Position numbers and translations under genes: made by a program. A stretch of DNA of 64,000 nucleotides from Acinetobacter phage ZZ1, in the sequence record NC_018087.3. The stretch is one strand, 5' to 3'. Below, one piece after another: positions 5,958-44,269 of the stretch. Under the pieces are notes generated by a model, which saw only the letters and a list, made by a program, of their open reading frames with translations, was not told where the DNA came from and did no database searches. Positions within the stretch are counted from its first letter, which is position 1. Every line of letters starts with the position of its first letter.

Positions 5958-6332
5958 TTAGGTATAGAATTTTTTACAATTATCAAAAAGAATTTGTTTC
6001 CATTTAGTTTCAGTCATTTGATCTTCATCATCCCACATCATACTATCAAATCCGTATTTTAAATAATCGGCGTATGCAAATAATGGAATTTCATCATGAA
6101 TAATTTCATAAATGTTGCGTACATACTCTTCAAAATACATACGTAATATACGAAGTTCAGTTTGAAATGATACACTAGTTAGTGCACCATTATATTTTTG
6201 ATAAAGTAATTTGCATGCGATGTTTGCAAAAATTGCTCGGTCATCACGGACCTGTTCGGGTTCACAAAAAGTTCTAGTCATTGCTTGCATACCATGTAAT
6301 AGTTTTACGACCGTATTCATCGGTAACTTCAA
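5958..6332 (-). CDS. hypothetical protein (124 aa)
   Basis: ORF. Confidence 0.3.
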   Translation of the reverse strand: MKLPMNTVVKLLHGMQAMTRTFCEPEQVRDDRAIFANIACKLLYQKYNGALTSVSFQTELRILRMYFEEYVRNIYEIIHDEIPLFAYADYLKYGFDSMMWDDEDQMTETKWKQILFDNCKKFYT

Positions 6333-6540
6333 AATCTAATTCTGCCAAGTCACCATTATGTGTACGAAGATGATCATCTTCATAAATCATATCTTCGATT
6401 AGTTGTGCCTGTTCTTGGATATGAGCAAGAATTTCTTTAATCAATACAACTTTACGCCGACTTGATTTAATCTTTATTTCTTCAAGCTGATTTTGTAAAT
6501 CACGCTCGAGAATAGATGCACCCACATGTTTTTTAGGCAT
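6274..6540 (-). CDS. hypothetical protein (88 aa)
   Basis: ORF overlapping its neighbour. Confidence 0.3.
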   Translation of the reverse strand: MPKKHVGASILERDLQNQLEEIKIKSSRRKVVLIKEILAHIQEQAQLIEDMIYEDDHLRTHNGDLAELDFEVTDEYGRKTITWYASND

Positions 6541-13804: not shown

Positions 13805-14154
13805 TATATTACTCCTACCAAATAATTTAATATATGTAGTGTCGGTGTAATTCGTAAATCAGATTGATATGATTGCATTGCCATAGTATGAACATATTCA
13901 ACTGTTGAATTATGTGTACAACGAGCGTTTAATGTTGTTTCAATATTTTTACGAACTTGATCCACAGTATTAAAATATGTTTTCGGCCTTGGCAAATTTA
14001 AGGCTTTTAAAATTGCGGGTTGCCAATTAACAGAGAAGCCTTGTGGCTTCTCTTGAATAATAAACAAATGTGTTTCTAAACGCTCAAACACTTCATTTGT
14101 TTGACTAGATTTCATAACGTTTAACCACCATATCGTAACGAGGATGTTTTGCAC
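13804..14154 (-). CDS. hypothetical protein (116 aa) in gene-43 insertion
   Basis: ORF. Confidence 0.3.
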   Translation of the reverse strand: MQNILVTIWWLNVMKSSQTNEVFERLETHLFIIQEKPQGFSVNWQPAILKALNLPRPKTYFNTVDQVRKNIETTLNARCTHNSTVEYVHTMAMQSYQSDLRITPTLHILNYLVGVI

Positions 14155-14428
14155 GTAATTCTGATTGAATTTTTACAAAACCATCAAAAATTTCATGTAA
14201 CAAAGGTACTGTAATTGCTTTATGACTTAATGTTTTAGCCAATTCTAAAATTGCATCGCGAATATCTTTACGAACATCATCAGCAAACTGGTTTATAAAC
14301 ATATCATCACAATCTAATAATGCATTACCGTCACGAATTATGCATAAGTATGGATATACATTAACACTTTGAACTTGTGAGTTATGTGAAATTACGCCAG
14401 CATCAAATTCAATAAAATTGGTTTTCAT
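14105..14428 (-). CDS. hypothetical protein (107 aa) in gene-43 insertion
   Basis: ORF. Confidence 0.3.
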   Translation of the reverse strand: MKTNFIEFDAGVISHNSQVQSVNVYPYLCIIRDGNALLDCDDMFINQFADDVRKDIRDAILELAKTLSHKAITVPLLHEIFDGFVKIQSELRAKHPRYDMVVKRYEI

Positions 14429-37080: not shown

Positions 37081-37100
37081 AGGGAACTAATTTGTTCCCT
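37081..37100. terminator. bidirectional hairpin terminator downstream of GIY-YIG gene
   Basis: AGGGAAC-taattt-GTTCCCT with AAAAA before and TTTTTTT after. Confidence 0.55.
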
Positions 37101-37527
37101 TTTTTTCTTTTGCCTTTCGGCGTCCTTCCAACATACGAGTGTGCCAAAATTTATAAAATTCTGGGTCTTGCAATTTCTCTTGGAGGACTTGTGACGCTTT
37201 AATATTGCGTTCACGAATTAATTCAGTTGAATTGGTGGCATTTACATAATCGAACCCACCAAGGCCACCTAATTTAATGTTATATGAGTTCGGATTTGAG
37301 ACCAAATCGGCATCGACTAACTCCTTTTCGTGTTCATACATTGCGTCTTGGGTATCGTGATATTTTATAATTTCTTTTGTGAAATTATGAATACCATATT
37401 TTTTAATTGCCCGTTTAATAATTGTACCTGAGCCCATATAACCATCATCTAAATTGGATGTTTTATGAGCCCCGATATAAAAATGACCATTAACGTTGTT
37501 AGTGATCTTGTATGTGTAATAAAACAT
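37087..37527 (-). CDS. GIY-YIG homing endonuclease (Seg-like)
   Basis: N-terminus FYYTYKITNNVNGHFYIGAHKTS carries the GIY...YIG motif; size and position typical of free-standing HEGs in T4-like phages. Confidence 0.75.
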   Translation of the reverse strand: MFYYTYKITNNVNGHFYIGAHKTSNLDDGYMGSGTIIKRAIKKYGIHNFTKEIIKYHDTQDAMYEHEKELVDADLVSNPNSYNIKLGGLGGFDYVNATNSTELIRERNIKASQVLQEKLQDPEFYKFWHTRMLEGRRKAKEKKGTN

Positions 37528-39606: not shown

Positions 39607-40026
39607 ATGAAAAACTTATTTTTAGTAATGACTGCAAACTTCGAAGTTTCTTATGTATCTACTGCACCGGTTGCAGATAATGGAGCTGAAATTGTTGTAC
39701 GTCAAGATATTCTTAAACATCTTAGTGTTACACAATTGGTTCAAATCGCTAAAAGCATGAACCCTGAATTAAAAGTTAATAATAAACAAGCGCGTGAAAT
39801 CATTCTCACTGCTATTGATGAAGAAATTGTTAAAATCCCAGTTAAATCGACTGAAACTAAAACAGTATCTTCTAAATCAATTTGTTATGCGGCATTTGAT
39901 TTAATCGATATGGATAATAAAGAAGTTGCACGTTCTACTGTTGAAGCTTTGATTACAGAGCACAATATTCCAAAACGTGTTGTTCAATCTTATGCATCAA
40001 ACTATCGTAAAGCTAAACGCGCATAA
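39607..40026 (+). CDS. hypothetical protein (139 aa), opposite orientation to flanking genes
   Basis: Lone plus-strand ORF with its own promoter-like element and a strong downstream terminator. Confidence 0.45.
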   Translation: MKNLFLVMTANFEVSYVSTAPVADNGAEIVVRQDILKHLSVTQLVQIAKSMNPELKVNNKQAREIILTAIDEEIVKIPVKSTETKTVSSKSICYAAFDLIDMDNKEVARSTVEALITEHNIPKRVVQSYASNYRKAKRA

Positions 40027-40044
40027 AATTTAAGTATGAAAAAA

Positions 40045-40070
40045 CCCGCAAATTGCGGGTTTTCTTTTAT
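40045..40070. terminator. bidirectional rho-independent terminator
   Basis: Hairpin CCCGCAAATTGCGGG preceded by an A-run and followed by TTTTCTTTTATTT. Confidence 0.6.
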
Positions 40071-40161: not shown

Positions 40162-40392
40162 TTATTGAATTACTGCAGTAGGTGTATAAAAATTAGATAA
40201 TACACTTAAAATCTTATCTAATTCAACTAATGCATGATATCGATTTTTATAAACTGATCTATGTTCGGTACATTCAACTTTGATACCAGTTGAAATATGA
40301 GTAACTCGAACACCTCTATCGGGCGTATTAACCCAATTACTATGTTTGCCTACTCTAAATGTATCAATTCTAATATCAGAAGGTAGTAGCAT
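40162..40392 (-). CDS. release-factor GGQ-domain-like protein lacking the GGQ motif (76 aa)
   Basis: DIRIDTFRVGKHSNWVNTPDRGVRVTHISTGIKVECTEHRSVYKNRYHAL aligns with the RF1/RF2 domain-3 core ([49 protein letters not shown]), but GGQ is replaced (HSN/KHS). Confidence 0.55.
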   Translation of the reverse strand: MLLPSDIRIDTFRVGKHSNWVNTPDRGVRVTHISTGIKVECTEHRSVYKNRYHALVELDKILSVLSNFYTPTAVIQ

Positions 40393-40404
40393 TTTAATTT
40401 CCTC

Positions 40405-40510
40405 ATTTAAAAATACGAGCGGGAATCGAACCCGCTAGCGCCGTATGGTCTTACGCGAACCATTCTTTCAATGGAATCGAACCATCTGCAGCCTCCGCCG
40501 GCACCTTCCA
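40405..40510 (-). other. tRNA-like remnant: two tandem T-arm/acceptor-like minihelices
   Basis: Minus strand contains GATGGTTCGATTCCATT and GCGGGTTCGATTCCCGC T-arm-like hairpins, but no canonical cloverleaf could be folded. Confidence 0.3.
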
Positions 40511-40518
40511 CCAAGGTA

Positions 40519-40968
40519 TCAGGTAATAATATAAATTGGTTTTTGTGGTAATATCGTCTCTAAATTATCAATAGTTCGACGAATTTTTGCCATCAAGTTT
40601 TTATCAACAATTGCGTCAGGTCCAACATTAATAAAAACACGTTCGATTGTTTTAAGGGCATCAAATCCACGTAAGGAATTTGCATTTCTATAACCAGTAG
40701 AAAAAATAAAACAATCTTGGCCCAAATCAGATTTAAAATTCCGTGCTGCAGGTAAAGACTGTGCAACATAAAGATCAGTATCTTTATTAAAAATTTCTAA
40801 AATATTTTTAGTACAATTAATAGGTGTGCACACATAAATCATACGATTGTAAATGGCATCTATAGGTTTATACGTTATTGGAGTTGTGGTTGCAGCTTTC
40901 TCTTTTACCTTATGGCATGTAAGATCTAAAAATCGTTGTAACTCATTCATAACATTCCATCCAAACAT
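40519..40968 (-). CDS. hypothetical protein (149 aa)
   Basis: ORF immediately downstream of the tRNA-island terminator. Confidence 0.4.
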   Translation of the reverse strand: MFGWNVMNELQRFLDLTCHKVKEKAATTTPITYKPIDAIYNRMIYVCTPINCTKNILEIFNKDTDLYVAQSLPAARNFKSDLGQDCFIFSTGYRNANSLRGFDALKTIERVFINVGPDAIVDKNLMAKIRRTIDNLETILPQKPIYIIT

Positions 40969-41033: not shown

Positions 41034-41108
41034 GGCGGCGTCGCCAAGGACTCGAACCCTGGATTGCGGATTTGGAATCCACCGTGTTTCCAACTACACT
41101 AACGACCC
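41034..41108 (-). tRNA. tRNA-Trp (anticodon CCA)
   Basis: Manual fold: D-stem GTGT/ACAC, anticodon stem GTGGA/TCCGC, loop TTCCAAA, T-arm CAGGG-TTCGAGT-CCTTG. Acceptor has one G.G mismatch and CCA is not exactly encoded. Confidence 0.55.
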
Positions 41109-41347
41109 TTAAACTGCAAATGTGCCAGCATGAAATAATCTCAAACACAATATAAAACATGTTGTCAACGCAGGAAAGCTTAATGGCATGTCACGATATA
41201 AATTGACAAGTGCATGCAAGCTGTTCTTTTTTAATTATATAGTAAGCACCAACAAATTGTGAAACGGTGGAATGAGTGAGGCAATTTGCTTTACTCAAGT
41301 ACCTATACTTACTATAGTGTATATTCGTCTTACGAGAAATATACAAA

Positions 41348-41425
41348 TTGGTCTCCGTAGAATGATTTGAACATTCGACACCTGCGTCCCAAACGCAGTG
41401 CTCTACCAGACTGAGCTATACGGAG
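41348..41425 (-). tRNA. tRNA-Pro (anticodon UGG)
   Basis: Manual fold: acceptor CTCCGTA/TACGGAG, anticodon loop TTTGGGA (G37), T-arm GAATG-TTCAAAT-CATTC, encoded CCA. Confidence 0.7.
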
Positions 41426-41431
41426 TTAAAA

Positions 41432-41518
41432 TGGTGTGCCCCCTGGGATTCGAACCCAGATAGCGTTAGCGCCGGAGTTACAGTCCGGTGAGTATGGCCA
41501 ATAACTCGAACGAGACAC
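41432..41518 (-). tRNA. tRNA-Tyr (anticodon GUA), type II with long variable arm
   Basis: Acceptor GTGTCTC/GGGGCAC (G.U wobbles), anticodon arm CCGGA-CTGTAAC-TCCGG, variable arm GCG-CTAA-CGC, T-arm CTGGG-TTCGAAT-CCCAG, CCA. Confidence 0.7.
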
Positions 41519-41638
41519 ATAAATTGCCGTGAAATGTCCTTTTATACTTTCGAGCATTTCACCACTCAATAAGTAAATCTTGAAGCTTTGTTTGTTTTAC
41601 AAGAGGAAACTTCGTCCTGCTTATCAGGCAATTAAATC

Positions 41639-41733
41639 TGGCGGAAGGTGAGGGGGTCGAACCCTCAAGGCGTGTCACCACGCTCGACTGATTTCAAGTC
41701 AGCTGCCGTCGCCAGCTTTCGGCTTGACCTTCC
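41639..41733 (-). tRNA. tRNA-Ser (anticodon UGA), type II
   Basis: Acceptor GGAAGGT/ACCTTCC, anticodon loop CTTGAAA, long variable arm GCGTG-GTGA-CACGC, T-arm GAGGG-TTCGACC-CCCTC, G73, CCA. Confidence 0.7.
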
Positions 41734-41800
41734 AATAAAATATTGACGACCTAAGAACCTTTACACCAATAATGGAGACTTAGGACCCTTTACATCAATT

Positions 41801-41879
41801 TGGCTCCCACCGTGAGATTCGAACTCACCTAACCTCGGATTAACAGTCCGGTCCATGCACCTAGCTCGGATTCGTGGGA
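41801..41879 (-). tRNA. tRNA-Asn (anticodon GUU)
   Basis: Anticodon loop CUGUUAA as in E. coli tRNA-Asn, T-arm GTGAG-TTCGAAT-CTCAC, acceptor with one mismatch, CCA. Confidence 0.65.
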
Positions 41880-41886
41880 ATAATTC

Positions 41887-41962
41887 TGGTGCCGACACGA
41901 GGATTTGAACCCCGGACCCTCTGATTACAAAACAGACGCTCTACCAACTGAGCTATGACGGC
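41887..41962 (-). tRNA. tRNA-Thr (anticodon UGU)
   Basis: D-arm GCTC-AGTTGGTA-GAGC, anticodon loop TTTGTAA, T-arm CGGGG-TTCAAAT-CCTCG, acceptor GCCGTCA/TGTCGGC (one U.U), CCA. Confidence 0.7.
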
Positions 41963-42058
41963 AAATCATTAATCAAATGAACCCGGGATACAATTTGAAT
42001 TTTGCGAGGATAAGTCGCTCATCTACCGGTATCGCCAAGATCATTTGATTAATGATCT
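41962..42058. repeat. 17-bp perfect inverted repeat flanking a 60-nt structured insert, abutting the 5' end of tRNA-Thr
   Basis: AATCATTAATCAAATGA (41962-41978) and its exact reverse complement TCATTTGATTAATGATC (42041-42058). The insert contains an anticodon-arm-like hairpin GCGA-CTTATCC-TCGC. Confidence 0.5.
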
Positions 42059-42364
42059 TATACATTTATTTATACAACCCAAAAGGGCACCAGTATGACC
42101 ACTTGCCGAGAACACAGTGAGTTAAAACTCTTTATGACAAGATTAATAAAATTTGATCGCTAAAACTTTGAACTTTACGAAATAAAAACTTTAATCTTTG
42201 AGATTTAAACTTTAAGCTTTCGCAATTTTGGGATAATGTACAGTCTTCGCGCATGGGAATCTGTATCACCATCAAAGTTCTATAACCTTAGAAGTTAGCC
42301 GATTTTAGGATGCATCGGCTAGAACCCTCTACAGTTTTTGATCATACTGATTTTATTTAAAACA

Positions 42365-42934
42365 TTAATCTAAAACAATTAATGGATTATTTTCTGTTAA
42401 AATTGCGTCGAATTCAAGCTCGAAGAAATCTATTGTCTTTTTAATTTCATCGAGTTCTTCTTGTATGTCCAGAATTGTAGGTTTTTCTCGTTTTTCCAAC
42501 AATGTCTTGAACTCGGCGTCATCTGATGGAGTTTTGAGCATCTTAGCATCAAACTCACGTTCAACTTGAACAAACAGTGAACGATTTGCAGCTAAATCTT
42601 TTTGCATTTTAGCATATAAGGCTTTAAGCTGAGGTAAAACATGAGTACGATATGTTAACGCATCATTAATACTCATTTCCATGTTGCCAATTTGAATTGT
42701 ATGTTTTGCATTGGCTCGATTAATTGCACAGCGCAATTTAAATTCTTCAGCTAAGCGATCTTTAAATGATTGAATATTACGACGACTTCCTTCAGAAAAT
42801 TCTTTAACCGGTCGTGCTGTTGAAATTTCAACTCCATTACGGAATACACCAGAAAATGCTGCATCACGAAGATCTGAAGTGAATGATACTTTATTGCGTT
42901 TTAACGTAACTAAACCACGAGCGATTGTAGTCAT
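42365..42934 (-). CDS. hypothetical protein (189 aa) embedded in the tRNA island
   Basis: ORF between the two tRNA sub-clusters. Confidence 0.4.
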   Translation of the reverse strand: MTTIARGLVTLKRNKVSFTSDLRDAAFSGVFRNGVEISTARPVKEFSEGSRRNIQSFKDRLAEEFKLRCAINRANAKHTIQIGNMEMSINDALTYRTHVLPQLKALYAKMQKDLAANRSLFVQVEREFDAKMLKTPSDDAEFKTLLEKREKPTILDIQEELDEIKKTIDFFELEFDAILTENNPLIVLD

Positions 42935-43155
42935 AATAAATTCCTCTATTCAAAATAAACTTTATGTGATCATTATATCATTAAATTATGAAAAGCAACT
43001 TAATTACTAATCATGTCCAACTTTTTTATTACATAATATACAAGTAGATTCTTTAGAATAATAACCCATATCATTTAACATTCTAGCTGTATATGAATCA
43101 TTATCTTTAGTTACTTGATAATAATGTTTGCAAAATAACTGTTTGAAGAACTTAA

Positions 43156-43398
43156 TCATTTAAGACGCACCTTGGCTTCAAAAACAAATCTGTATTCATC
43201 ATCCGTCAAAACTTTGGCTCGTTCATAAGAAGTTGCCATTCTTAAAACGGCACCAGTATATGATACAATTGCAAAAACACAATTTTTAGAATCTTTATTG
43301 GCAATTTCACCAACTTTAAATCTAAATTTTTTATACGTATATTTATTATCATACGTACATAAAAATTGTGCTAAATTTTTAGAAAATGTAAATCTCAT
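43156..43398 (-). CDS. hypothetical protein (80 aa) embedded in the tRNA island
   Basis: ORF. Confidence 0.35.
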   Translation of the reverse strand: MRFTFSKNLAQFLCTYDNKYTYKKFRFKVGEIANKDSKNCVFAIVSYTGAVLRMATSYERAKVLTDDEYRFVFEAKVRLK

Positions 43399-43599
43399 TA
43401 ATTTACCATCTTCATTTAAAATTCCATAAATTGAACGGCTTGATGTTTTATCAATGCACTTGCGACAAATCTATTTATTCATGGTAAACCTCATCAATTA
43501 AGGGTTAAAAGAAATAAAGGAGGTTTTTCATTCAAGGACCTCATACCTTTGCCAATGAGAGGGCATGCTAAGCAGTGGTCACATCTCAGGCTATGAATT

Positions 43600-43675
43600 T
43601 GGTGGATACCGGGAGTGCTTGCACCTCCAATCAACTACGTTGTCCGCTGCTTTACTATTTAAGCTAACAGTACCC
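43600..43675 (-). ncRNA. atypical tRNA-like RNA gene (acceptor stem + CCA, non-canonical arms)
   Basis: Minus strand GGGTACT...GGTATCC-A-CCA forms a 7-bp acceptor stem (with G.U) and a D-arm-like GCTT-AAATAGTA-AAGC. It lies 1 nt 3' of tRNA-Cys, but the T-loop is GTGCAAGCA and no clear anticodon arm exists. Confidence 0.3.
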
Positions 43676-43676
43676 A

Positions 43677-43753
43677 TGGAGACGCCGGATGGATTCGAAC
43701 CCTCATCGACGCGGATTTGCAATCCGCCGCATAACCAATTCTGCCACGACGTC
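43677..43753 (-). tRNA. tRNA-Cys (anticodon GCA)
   Basis: Acceptor GACGTCG/CGGCGTC, anticodon arm GCGGA-TTGCAAA-TCCGC, T-loop TTCGAAT (one mismatch in T-stem), U73, CCA. Confidence 0.6.
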
Positions 43754-43944
43754 ATAAAATTTATTAAATGCAAGCAACTTCCTCAGTTTCCCCTGGCTAC
43801 CACACCAGTGCATTAAAGTTTCATTTATCTAGCATGACAGTCCCTGCAGTGACCAACATATTCAATAAAATTATTCAAAACTACATTTTCGGGAGCGACC
43901 CTATTCACTTCGTTTTTATATGCTATACTTGCTCTAATAAATCT

Positions 43945-44021
<77 letters not shown>

Positions 44022-44026
44022 AAAAA

Positions 44027-44102
44027 TGGTCCGCCTGACAGGATTCGAACCTGTGTGAGTCGCAATAGAACTACGATGCCTAATCCATTCGGCCACAGAC
44101 GG
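44027..44102 (-). tRNA. tRNA-Arg (anticodon UCU)
   Basis: Acceptor CCGTCTG/CAGGCGG, anticodon arm TCGTA-GTTCTAT-TGCGA, T-arm ACAGG-TTCGAAT-CCTGT, CCA. T4 also carries tRNA-Arg(UCU). Confidence 0.65.
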
Positions 44103-44107
44103 ATGTT

Positions 44108-44188
44108 TGGTGGAAAAGACAAGAATTGCACTTGCATATCCAGGAGTTATTAAGTTCCCGGGCGTTCACTTTGTTTCGCCACTTTCCC
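44108..44188 (-). ncRNA. atypical tRNA-like gene with expanded (10-nt) anticodon loop ACUUAAUAAC and T-loop TGCAATT
   Basis: Acceptor GGGAAAG/CTTTTCC, A73, CCA; D-arm GGCG-loop-CGCC; anticodon stem CGGGA/TCCTG around a 10-nt loop; T-arm GCAAG-TGCAATT-CTTGT. Packed 5-7 nt from the flanking tRNAs like a real tRNA gene. Confidence 0.35.
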
Positions 44189-44195
44189 ATAAATT

Positions 44196-44269
44196 TGGTC
44201 GTTCAGGACGGATTCGAACCGTCACACAGAGTTTTAGGGACTCCTGGTCTACCGTTAACCTACTGAACG
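44196..44269 (-). tRNA. tRNA with anticodon CUA (amber/UAG-reading; suppressor-type), identity unknown
   Basis: Perfect acceptor CGTTCAG/CTGAACG, A73, CCA; D-arm GGTT-AACGGTA-GACC; anticodon stem GGAGT/ACTCT (one G.U) with loop CCCUAAA, so 34-36 = CUA; T-arm GACGG-TTCGAAT-CCGTC. C33 instead of U33 is unusual. Confidence 0.5.

Follow-up and report, generated by a model that had tools for sequence, protein, structure and literature searches.

A phage-encoded homologue of release-factor domain 3 that lacks the GGQ motif

The GGQ tripeptide is the universal catalytic signature of peptide chain release factors (RFs), which are among the most conserved bacterial proteins. At positions 40162-40392 (minus strand) of the stretch of DNA analyzed here, a 76-amino-acid (aa) open reading frame (ORF) of Acinetobacter phage ZZ1 encodes what appears to be the domain that carries this signature, without the signature itself. 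What is this protein, and what may its function be? The stretch (hereafter the window; 64,000 nucleotides [nt] of sequence record NC_018087.3) covers positions 32001-96000 of the genome of ZZ1, a T4-like phage of the genus Zedzedvirus. The offset between the window and the genome (window + 32000) was obtained from the tRNA coordinates in Table 2 of PMC4177764. We are nearly certain that the ORF encodes a standalone homologue of RF1/RF2 domain 3, the GGQ domain, that lacks GGQ and is conserved in phages. It is exactly the catalytic signature that this phage family has replaced.

The domain and its replaced loop

The ORF corresponds to ZZ1 genome nt 72162-72392, and its coordinates were exactly those given by the first-pass annotation, a model's reading of the sequence that had drawn attention to it. 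It starts with ATG, ends with TAA, and spans 231 nt including the stop codon (protein sequence: MLLPSDIRIDTFRVGKHSNWVNTPDRGVRVTHISTGIKVECTEHRSVYKNRYHALVELDKILSVLSNFYTPTAVIQ). Direct reading of the sequence revealed a GAGG Shine-Dalgarno (ribosome-binding) site 8 nt before the ATG, at 40401-40404 on the minus strand. Three isolates that were sequenced independently (ZZ1, Henu6, and vB_AbaSt_W16) do not differ in the 231-nt ORF, and approximately 1.5 kb around it is 99.3-99.8% identical to Henu6 and vB_AbaSt_W16. The remaining two frames contain many stops and no GGQ. Since the three isolates are identical and the other frames are closed, a sequencing error or frameshift that hides GGQ was excluded as far as sequence data allow.

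The identification of the ORF as a homologue of RF domain 3 in the first-pass annotation was supported by Pfam, phmmer, PHROG, and AlphaFold2/Foldseek alike, and the profile search and AlphaFold structural comparison that it had suggested both yielded significant similarity. Pfam RF-1 (PF00472) matched with E=3e-10 and 40.5 bits (gathering score, 35) over profile positions 9-69 of 116. This was the sole Pfam match of the 76-aa protein, in which neither a codon-recognition domain (PCRF, PF03462; PxT/SPF) nor domain 1 was found. The best phmmer match in the PDB was E. coli RF1 residues 218-274 (E=1.7e-11 to 4.5e-11), followed at lower ranks by RF2, mitochondrial RFs, and PrfH; C12orf65 chains reached just E=0.16-0.42. 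PHROG 20323, labeled 'RF-1 domain peptide chain release factor', matched with E=1.1e-37 (residues 1-72 on profile positions 1-73 of 73). An AlphaFold2 model made from 45 family sequences had a mean predicted local distance difference test (pLDDT) score of 89.6 and consisted of three strands and a single long helix: strand 7-12, loop 13-26, strand 27-32, strand 38-41, and helix 47-68, followed by a C-terminal tail (NFYTPTAVIQ) that is not basic. Foldseek matched this model in the PDB to RF1/RF2 domain 3 in ribosome complexes, with TM scores of 0.70-0.79, a root-mean-square deviation of 1.6-3.0 Å over 64-68 residues, and 37-45% identity.

Among the NCBIfam models, prfA (TIGR00019) scored 49 bits against a cut-off of 423, prfB (TIGR00020) 43 bits against 370, and PrfH (TIGR03072) 35.7 bits against 166.65, and no match to ArfB (NF006718) was obtained. 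The alignment to RF1 218-274 was contiguous, with no insertion at the site of the extra helix of ArfB/ICT1. Based on this ranking and the absence of the insertion, the ZZ1 domain is of the RF1/RF2 type, not the ArfB type, and is nearer to RF1/RF2/PrfH than to ArfB/ICT1. An RtcB gene, one of the criteria for PrfH, was not seen in the neighborhood of the RF-like gene.

The protein shares with RF1/RF2 domain 3 the three strands and the long helix as well as the motifs DxRIDTFR, VR(V/I)TH-x-(P/S)TG, and RS-x-(H/Y)-x-N(K/R). In contrast to RF1/RF2, it lacks GGQ, its loop is one residue shorter, and the glutamines of the RF 'CQ' and 'RSQ' motifs are not conserved. It also lacks domains 1, 2, and 4, and, thus, stop-codon recognition and the RF3 interface. 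The codon-independent rescue factors ArfB (YaeJ), ICT1, and C12orf65 similarly have a GGQ-type domain without a codon-recognition domain. However, they possess GGQ, an inserted helix, and a basic C-terminal tail, which enters the mRNA channel and is needed for ribosome binding and activity (PMC3950681), none of which is present in the phage protein.

The replacement of GGQ, which had been the central claim about this ORF, was evident in the HMMER and MAFFT alignments, both of which placed SNW at the position of GGQH. In the HMMER alignment, FRV-GKHSNWVNT lies opposite the GGQ-loop segment of RFs with a one-residue gap, in keeping with the shorter loop of ZZ1. These alignments and the AlphaFold secondary structure delimit the equivalent of the GGQ loop to residues 13-26 (RVGKHSNWVNTPDR; 40315-40356, minus strand), within which the codons AGT AAT TGG (40333-40341, minus strand) specify Ser18-Asn19-Trp20 in place of Gly-Gly-Gln-His. 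The glycines are the catalytically critical part of the GGQ motif. Since both glycines and the glutamine are absent, we infer that the ZZ1 protein is most probably inactive as an RF-type hydrolase.

The substitution is not peculiar to ZZ1. When 1.84 billion cluster representatives were searched exhaustively with HMMER, 1186 matches were obtained, and the best 150 of these, which were inspected, included 48 representatives of 50%-identity clusters without GGQ. Across 49 GGQ-less domains, the loop-tip motif is [S/G][G/N/A][W/F]. Position 18 is S in 27 and G in nine of the 49; position 19 is G in 21, N in eight, and A in six; and position 20 is W in 33 and F in eight, such that W or F occupies the Gln/His position in 41/49.

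The first-pass annotation had stated that everything flanking the loop is conserved, which proved to be correct in part. R45, S46, H48, N50, K/R51, H32, P34, and G36 are kept: N50 was retained in 49/49 domains, G36 in 48/49, R45 in 47/49, and H32 in 46/49, and each of these four residues, P34, S46, and L58 was retained in 45-49 of the 49, with H48 and K/R51 also being conserved. However, four positions that are near-invariant in canonical RFs are relaxed in the 48 GGQ-less proteins, namely, the Q of 'CQ', the Q of 'RSQ', V38, and A27, which are T42, V47, K38, and G27, respectively, in ZZ1. Since further RF-invariant positions are relaxed, the constraint regime has been altered beyond the GGQ tripeptide.

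The phage family and its genomic setting

The RF-like gene was detected by tblastn in 117 phage records, 65 of which are Acinetobacter-labeled; most of those examined among the latter are T4-like and annotated. Therefore, the view in the first-pass annotation that such a gene was not known from T4-like phages did not hold. The survey of related phages that it had proposed showed that the substitution recurs. Besides ZZ1, no fewer than five T4-like Acinetobacter phage lineages have GGQ-less orthologues, and all of the orthologues examined lack GGQ: those of Berthold (Lazarusvirus), Acj9, Minot (Hadassahvirus), AB1I1M-1, phage 133, the Zedzedvirus-like metagenomic contig L038, the Pseudomonas phage PSV3 (Septimatrevirus), and Vibrio phage 1.161.O.

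Some GGQ-less members stand alone, at 64-125 aa; others are longer and carry the domain at the N terminus, at the C terminus, internally, or in duplicate. Pfam scans of ten longer members detected nothing besides RF-1, and no RNA-binding or enzymatic fusion domain. Intact orthologues at 25-54% identity occur in ZZ1, phage 133, Acj9, Berthold, Minot, AB1I1M-1, and L038, and the T4-like subgroup shares the C-terminal tail F-Y-x-[P/A]-T-x-x-[I/Y]-[Q/S]. Between the orthologues of ZZ1 and L038, the identity is 54% and the ratio of nonsynonymous to synonymous substitution rates (dN/dS) is approximately 0.48. The gene is fast-evolving and under purifying selection. The replacement is common to a large family with its own motif, which bears out the opinion that the missing GGQ does not reflect random decay. 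With regard to a single origin of the GGQ-less proteins, just 27/48 have a GGQ-less nearest neighbor outside the loop, a domain this short being unsuitable for a reliable tree, and the mean identity is 49% among GGQ-less proteins versus 52% to canonical RFs.

A word-indexed homology search with the ZZ1 protein alone matched only itself; with the family profile, the output was dominated by canonical RF1/RF2. A scan of viral loci with a 12-sequence alignment returned a mixture of true RFs and GGQ-less proteins. Phages also carry full-length RF1/RF2 and mini RF domains, some of which are as small as the GGQ-less proteins (68-73 aa; L028 and L031). In contrast to the latter, these keep GGQ, the full-length ones keep PCRF, and they are presumably active. 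Mini RF domains with GGQ were found in three IMG/VR loci (68, 73, and 122 aa; L028 860-1066, L031 5983-6204, and L030 114-482, respectively), and another IMG/VR locus (L020 5980-6399) encodes a 139-aa protein with GGR in the place of GGQ. The sequences suggest that phage mini RF domains span a range from possibly active to inactive. In Septimatrevirus-type phages (PSV3, L007 3995-4489; P0012), the GGQ-less domain is followed by approximately 100 residues rich in basic and aromatic amino acids (KPRIYWQYYPKSRRGFWKVS...) with no Pfam match. The label of the gene, 'prfA: peptide chain release factor 1', is almost certainly wrong.

Existing labels of the family include PHROG 20323, 'RF-1 domain', 'peptide chain release factor', and 'putative peptidyl-tRNA hydrolase', and a 2010-era note on Acj9 reads 'similar to peptide chain release factor 1'. 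Names of the kind 'peptide chain release factor 1', 'prfB', or 'putative peptidyl-tRNA hydrolase' credit the protein with an activity that is almost certainly impossible given its sequence. The ZZ1 genome paper (PMC4177764) does not mention the gene. Full-text literature searches turned up neither a mention of the missing GGQ nor a study of GGQ-less RF domains of phages, and no characterized viral protein of this kind. The missing GGQ, not the gene, appears to be unreported. The family is present in therapeutic-candidate phages of Acinetobacter baumannii and Pseudomonas, and its members are small and soluble-looking.

The gene lies beside a tRNA island that includes a CUA-anticodon tRNA, as the first-pass annotation had noted. 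The cluster (41037-44269, minus strand) comprises tRNAs for Trp, Pro, Ser, Thr, Cys, Met, and Arg and the CUA-anticodon tRNA (44196-44269, minus strand). The RF-like gene is its last member, at the downstream edge, where tRNA-Trp is followed by a 149-aa ORF, a tRNA-like RNA, and the RF-like gene. The gene is located inside the tRNA cluster in Berthold, Minot, and AB1I1M-1 and just downstream of it in ZZ1, Acj9, and phage 133. It occurs together with a CUA tRNA in ZZ1, Berthold, Acj9, AB1I1M-1, Minot, and the IMG/VR locus L010; the tRNAs of relatives are at L002 4222-4296, L003 986-1058, L005 4047-4118, and L006 2349-2423. Five T4-like Acinetobacter phage lineages have conserved this amber-suppressor-type tRNA. 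Its anticodon loop is CUCUAAA, except in ZZ1, which alone has CCCUAAA, with C for the near-universal U at position 33.

The first-pass annotation had combined the RF-like gene and the tRNAs into one module for modulating translation termination or ribosome rescue. However, this arrangement is specific to certain lineages. In phage 133, the RF-like gene and the 149-aa neighbor are present, but no CUA tRNA was found in the 16-kb tRNA region. Among non-T4-like loci (Pseudomonas, Vibrio, and most metagenomic phages), 12 of the 13 scanned had no tRNA within approximately 6 kb. In these phages, the gene is situated among small early/accessory ORFs of a 40-43-kb siphovirus (Septimatrevirus), Vibrio phages, and an approximately 210-kb phage, and in a YuA-like temperate phage it adjoins the integrase. 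A strict linkage of the RF-like gene to the CUA tRNA, or to tRNA genes in general, was rejected based on phage 133 and the tRNA-free loci.

The stop codons of the 102 long ORFs in the window are TAA in 68, TGA in 31, and TAG in three. The three TAG-terminated ORFs (6274-6540, 14105-14428, and 37087-37527, all minus strand) each have a further in-frame stop 3-16 codons on, and such back-up stops would limit the damage caused by a phage-borne amber suppressor. No TAG-interrupted genes were seen in the 64-kb window, and amber recoding in the window was rejected because TAG is rare and backed in each case by a second stop. The context survey and the TAG data together indicate that it is one phage lineage, and not the protein family, that is characterized by the association with tRNAs and a suppressor.

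Possible functions

The results obtained suggest that phages have put the RF fold to a new use, of which interference with termination, with ribosome rescue, or with a protein recognizing RFs would be the most plausible. The reading that we favor, with a probability of roughly 0.35, is that the ZZ1 protein acts as a non-catalytic mimic of RF domain 3 at the A site or peptidyl-transferase center of the 50S subunit, possibly with a partner. Since the fold and the R-S-x-H/Y-x-N-K/R start of the helix are kept, the most likely docking site would be that of RF domain 3, on the A-site side of the 50S subunit near the peptidyl-transferase center and the CCA end of the P-site tRNA. An aromatic residue would then take the position of the catalytic Gln, and hydrolysis would not be triggered. 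Once bound, the protein may slow or prevent the release of peptides or the rescue of ribosomes by RF1/RF2, ArfA-RF2, or ArfB, and this effect may serve as an early host-takeover or counter-defense function. Stable binding would probably require a partner, a special ribosome state (e.g., a 50S subunit with peptidyl-tRNA), or a high concentration because a 76-aa domain has no anchor in the decoding center. The variable extensions of longer family members may act as such an anchor, and the varied domain architecture is consistent with a targeting domain. Mora et al. in 2003 and Zavialov et al. in 2002 are said to have found that full-length RF1/RF2 with GGQ mutations bind ribosomes and are dominant-negative.

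Dead RF-like domains are known in other systems. As a precedent for the mimic, Dom34/Pelota and most baeRF-1 families have also lost the catalytic Gln, have a variable loop, and have been proposed as non-catalytic ligands of the ribosomal A site or negative regulators of translation (PMC6514570); however, they have the RNase H-like aeRF-1 fold, not the bacterial RF peptidyl-tRNA-hydrolysis domain. Plant mtRF2b (PrfB3), a tick ICT1-like protein, and MRPS35 similarly lost GGQ, are retained and expressed, and are presumed to be non-hydrolytic (PMC3472500, PMC6514570). In contrast to the phage proteins, these eukaryotic paralogues are organellar, full-length or of the ICT1 type, not viral, not minimal domains of 64-80 aa, and without [S/G][G/N/A][W/F]. 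The same survey of RF evolution (PMC6514570) mentions neither phages nor a GGQ-less family of the bacterial type.

Several observations weigh against a mimic at the peptidyl-transferase center. The isolated GGQ domain of ArfB (deletion 101-140) was present in the soluble fraction only, did not bind ribosomes, and had no activity (PMC3950681; restated in PMC7427801); therefore, a bare domain 3 is not expected to bind unaided. The conserved R45, S46, N50, H32, P34, and G36 could serve the fold only. The GGQ loop of free factors is disordered (PMC7427801), whereas the ZZ1 loop was modeled confidently (block pLDDT 89-93), and, thus, the Trp may pack onto the domain rather than project into the center. 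The loop also varies among T4-like orthologues, with the Trp being displaced in Acj9 and phage 133 and missing from AB1I1M-1, which argues against a precise 'plug'. Furthermore, PADLOC defense models at E<=0.1 did not match the RF-like protein, its neighbor, or three relatives. The first-pass annotation had envisaged competition with host RF1/RF2 or ArfB for the A site; with neither a codon-recognition domain nor an ArfB-type tail in the protein, this is pure inference. We also consider it unlikely, albeit worth stating, that many phages carry an 'anti-release factor', in which a dead RF domain with an aromatic tip in the peptidyl-transferase center would hold peptidyl-tRNA unhydrolyzed or exclude RF1/RF2 and rescue factors, alongside an amber-suppressor tRNA in Acinetobacter T4-like phages. 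If true, such a factor would be a general phage handle on termination and ribosome rescue.

Other explanations need to be weighed against the favored ribosomal mimic. The domain may have been neofunctionalized off the ribosome as an RNA- or tRNA-binding module (for phage tRNAs, CCA ends, or mRNA) or as a protein adaptor, which we regard as a somewhat unlikely but serious candidate. A changed constraint is indicated by the missing GGQ and by the relaxation of two further RF-invariant glutamines and other invariant positions, and the fast evolution of the family, the failure of an isolated GGQ domain to bind ribosomes (PMC3950681), and the steady location at the tRNA cluster in every T4-like Acinetobacter lineage examined all fit this explanation. 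Furthermore, the loss of GGQ is documented in plant mtRF2b and the tick ICT1 paralogue (PMC3472500). On the other hand, off-ribosome RNA binding is not known for the fold, most non-T4-like members are distant from tRNA genes, and the ten longer members scanned carry no fused RNA-binding or enzymatic domain. Concerning the fate of such paralogues, Stoppel et al. reportedly described in 2011 that the plant GGQ-less RF2 paralogue PrfB3 became an mRNA-stability factor. It is improbable that the protein is a decoy or inhibitor of a protein that recognizes the GGQ domain, such as PrmC/HemK, with the aromatic residue in the Gln pocket, or a host defense protein. PrmC binds RF1 domain 3 in complex 2B3T, which was among both the sequence and fold matches; the small-small-aromatic tripeptide lies exactly at GGQ(H), as may be expected of a substrate-mimicking inhibitor; and a small, standalone, soluble domain fits a protein-protein decoy. 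However, the benefit is not evident since host RFs are methylated before infection and the latent period of ZZ1 is 9 min (PMC4177764), the loop is variable in some orthologues, and no co-occurring partner gene was found.

An active peptidyl-tRNA hydrolase or rescue factor with an alternative loop, which would free ribosomes stalled during infection (e.g., after the depletion of tRNAs by an anticodon nuclease), is also rather improbable. Viral contigs also encode mini RF domains with GGQ that are just 68-122 aa long (L028, L031, and L030), and, thus, a tiny domain may be able to act. In several GGQ-less members, the aromatic residue is still preceded by Gly-Gly (GGW, GGF), and the Gln side chain is, according to what Shaw and Green are said to have reported in 2007, not strictly required for catalysis in vitro. 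Ribosome-rescue genes also occur in the tRNA arrays of mycobacteria and their phages (PMC5966550), and many records label the gene 'putative peptidyl-tRNA hydrolase'. Nevertheless, ZZ1 has Ser-Asn instead of Gly-Gly in a loop that is one residue shorter, the N-terminal domain of ArfB alone cannot hydrolyze peptidyl-tRNA (PMC3950681, PMC7427801), and the prfA, prfB, and prfH scores are far under their cut-offs with no match to ArfB. It is very improbable that the protein is a dedicated partner of the CUA tRNA that lowers RF1 activity for amber readthrough. The two genes do share the clusters of six lineages or loci, the anticodon loop is conserved over these lineages, and TAG stops are rare (3/102) with a back-up stop always near. 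However, phage 133 has the gene in the absence of a CUA tRNA from its cluster, tRNAs are lacking near most GGQ-less family members, no gene in the window is interrupted by an in-frame TAG, and the ZZ1 CUA tRNA has C at position 33. Moreover, the ZZ1 protein cannot be UAG-specific because it has no codon-reading domain. A decaying remnant of a captured RF gene or a chance ORF might be suspected from a domain-3 fragment whose catalytic motif is gone. This explanation was effectively refuted by the comparative data, which comprise intact orthologues at 25-54% identity in many lineages with a common motif and the C-terminal tail FY-x-[PA]-T, and by the dN/dS of 0.48, the good ribosome-binding site, the confident compact fold, and the identical ORF in three isolates.

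Neighboring elements

The first-pass annotation had reported that the gene is followed by a structured RNA of approximately 65 nt. This was not the case; the structured RNA is upstream of the gene, and the 93 nt downstream are not significantly structured (z=-1.7). A downstream structured RNA was rejected since z=-3.7 was reached solely when the terminator hairpin was included, and Rfam matches were far below thresholds. This hairpin (40041-40063) is GC-rich, flanked by runs of A and T, and resembles a bidirectional terminator common to the RF-like gene and the convergent ORF at 39607-40026 (plus strand).

The upstream neighbor of the RF-like gene is the 149-aa ORF at 40519-40968 (minus strand), which belongs to phrog_20652, a family of unknown function. 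It adjoins the RF-like gene in ZZ1, phage 133 (L009 4556-5005; 27% identity, E=4e-16), and L038 (2794-3225). The ORF had no Pfam match, a homologue search gave two homologues, and its AlphaFold model had a pLDDT of 47. No Pfam match was obtained for the neighboring ORFs, the PHROGs of which are all of unknown function except for that of ORF 42365-42934, which is labeled 'tail fiber'.

A conserved, tRNA-like structured RNA (40407-40519, minus strand) with two T-arm-like hairpins (GGTTCGATTCC) separates the 149-aa ORF from the RF-like ORF. Neither an Rfam family nor an ARAGORN call was assigned to it. It is 91% identical in L038, the flanking proteins of which reach just 54-69%. Segments of AB1I1M-1 and phage 133 that are located elsewhere in their tRNA clusters match it at 83-87% identity. 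RNAalifold on three sequences predicted 35 pairs, eight of which show compensatory changes. By its position, this RNA is reminiscent of the T4 stable RNAs C and D. It is an independent element, a neighbor and not demonstrably part of the function of the RF-like protein.

Rfam also gave a tRNA match between tRNA-Arg and the CUA tRNA, at 44111-44188 (minus strand; 34.4 bits, gathering score 29), which ARAGORN does not call and which is not among the eight tRNAs in the ZZ1 genome paper (PMC4177764). This match may represent a ninth tRNA or a degenerate one. Another tRNA-like match, at 41435-41516, was weaker (25.4 bits).

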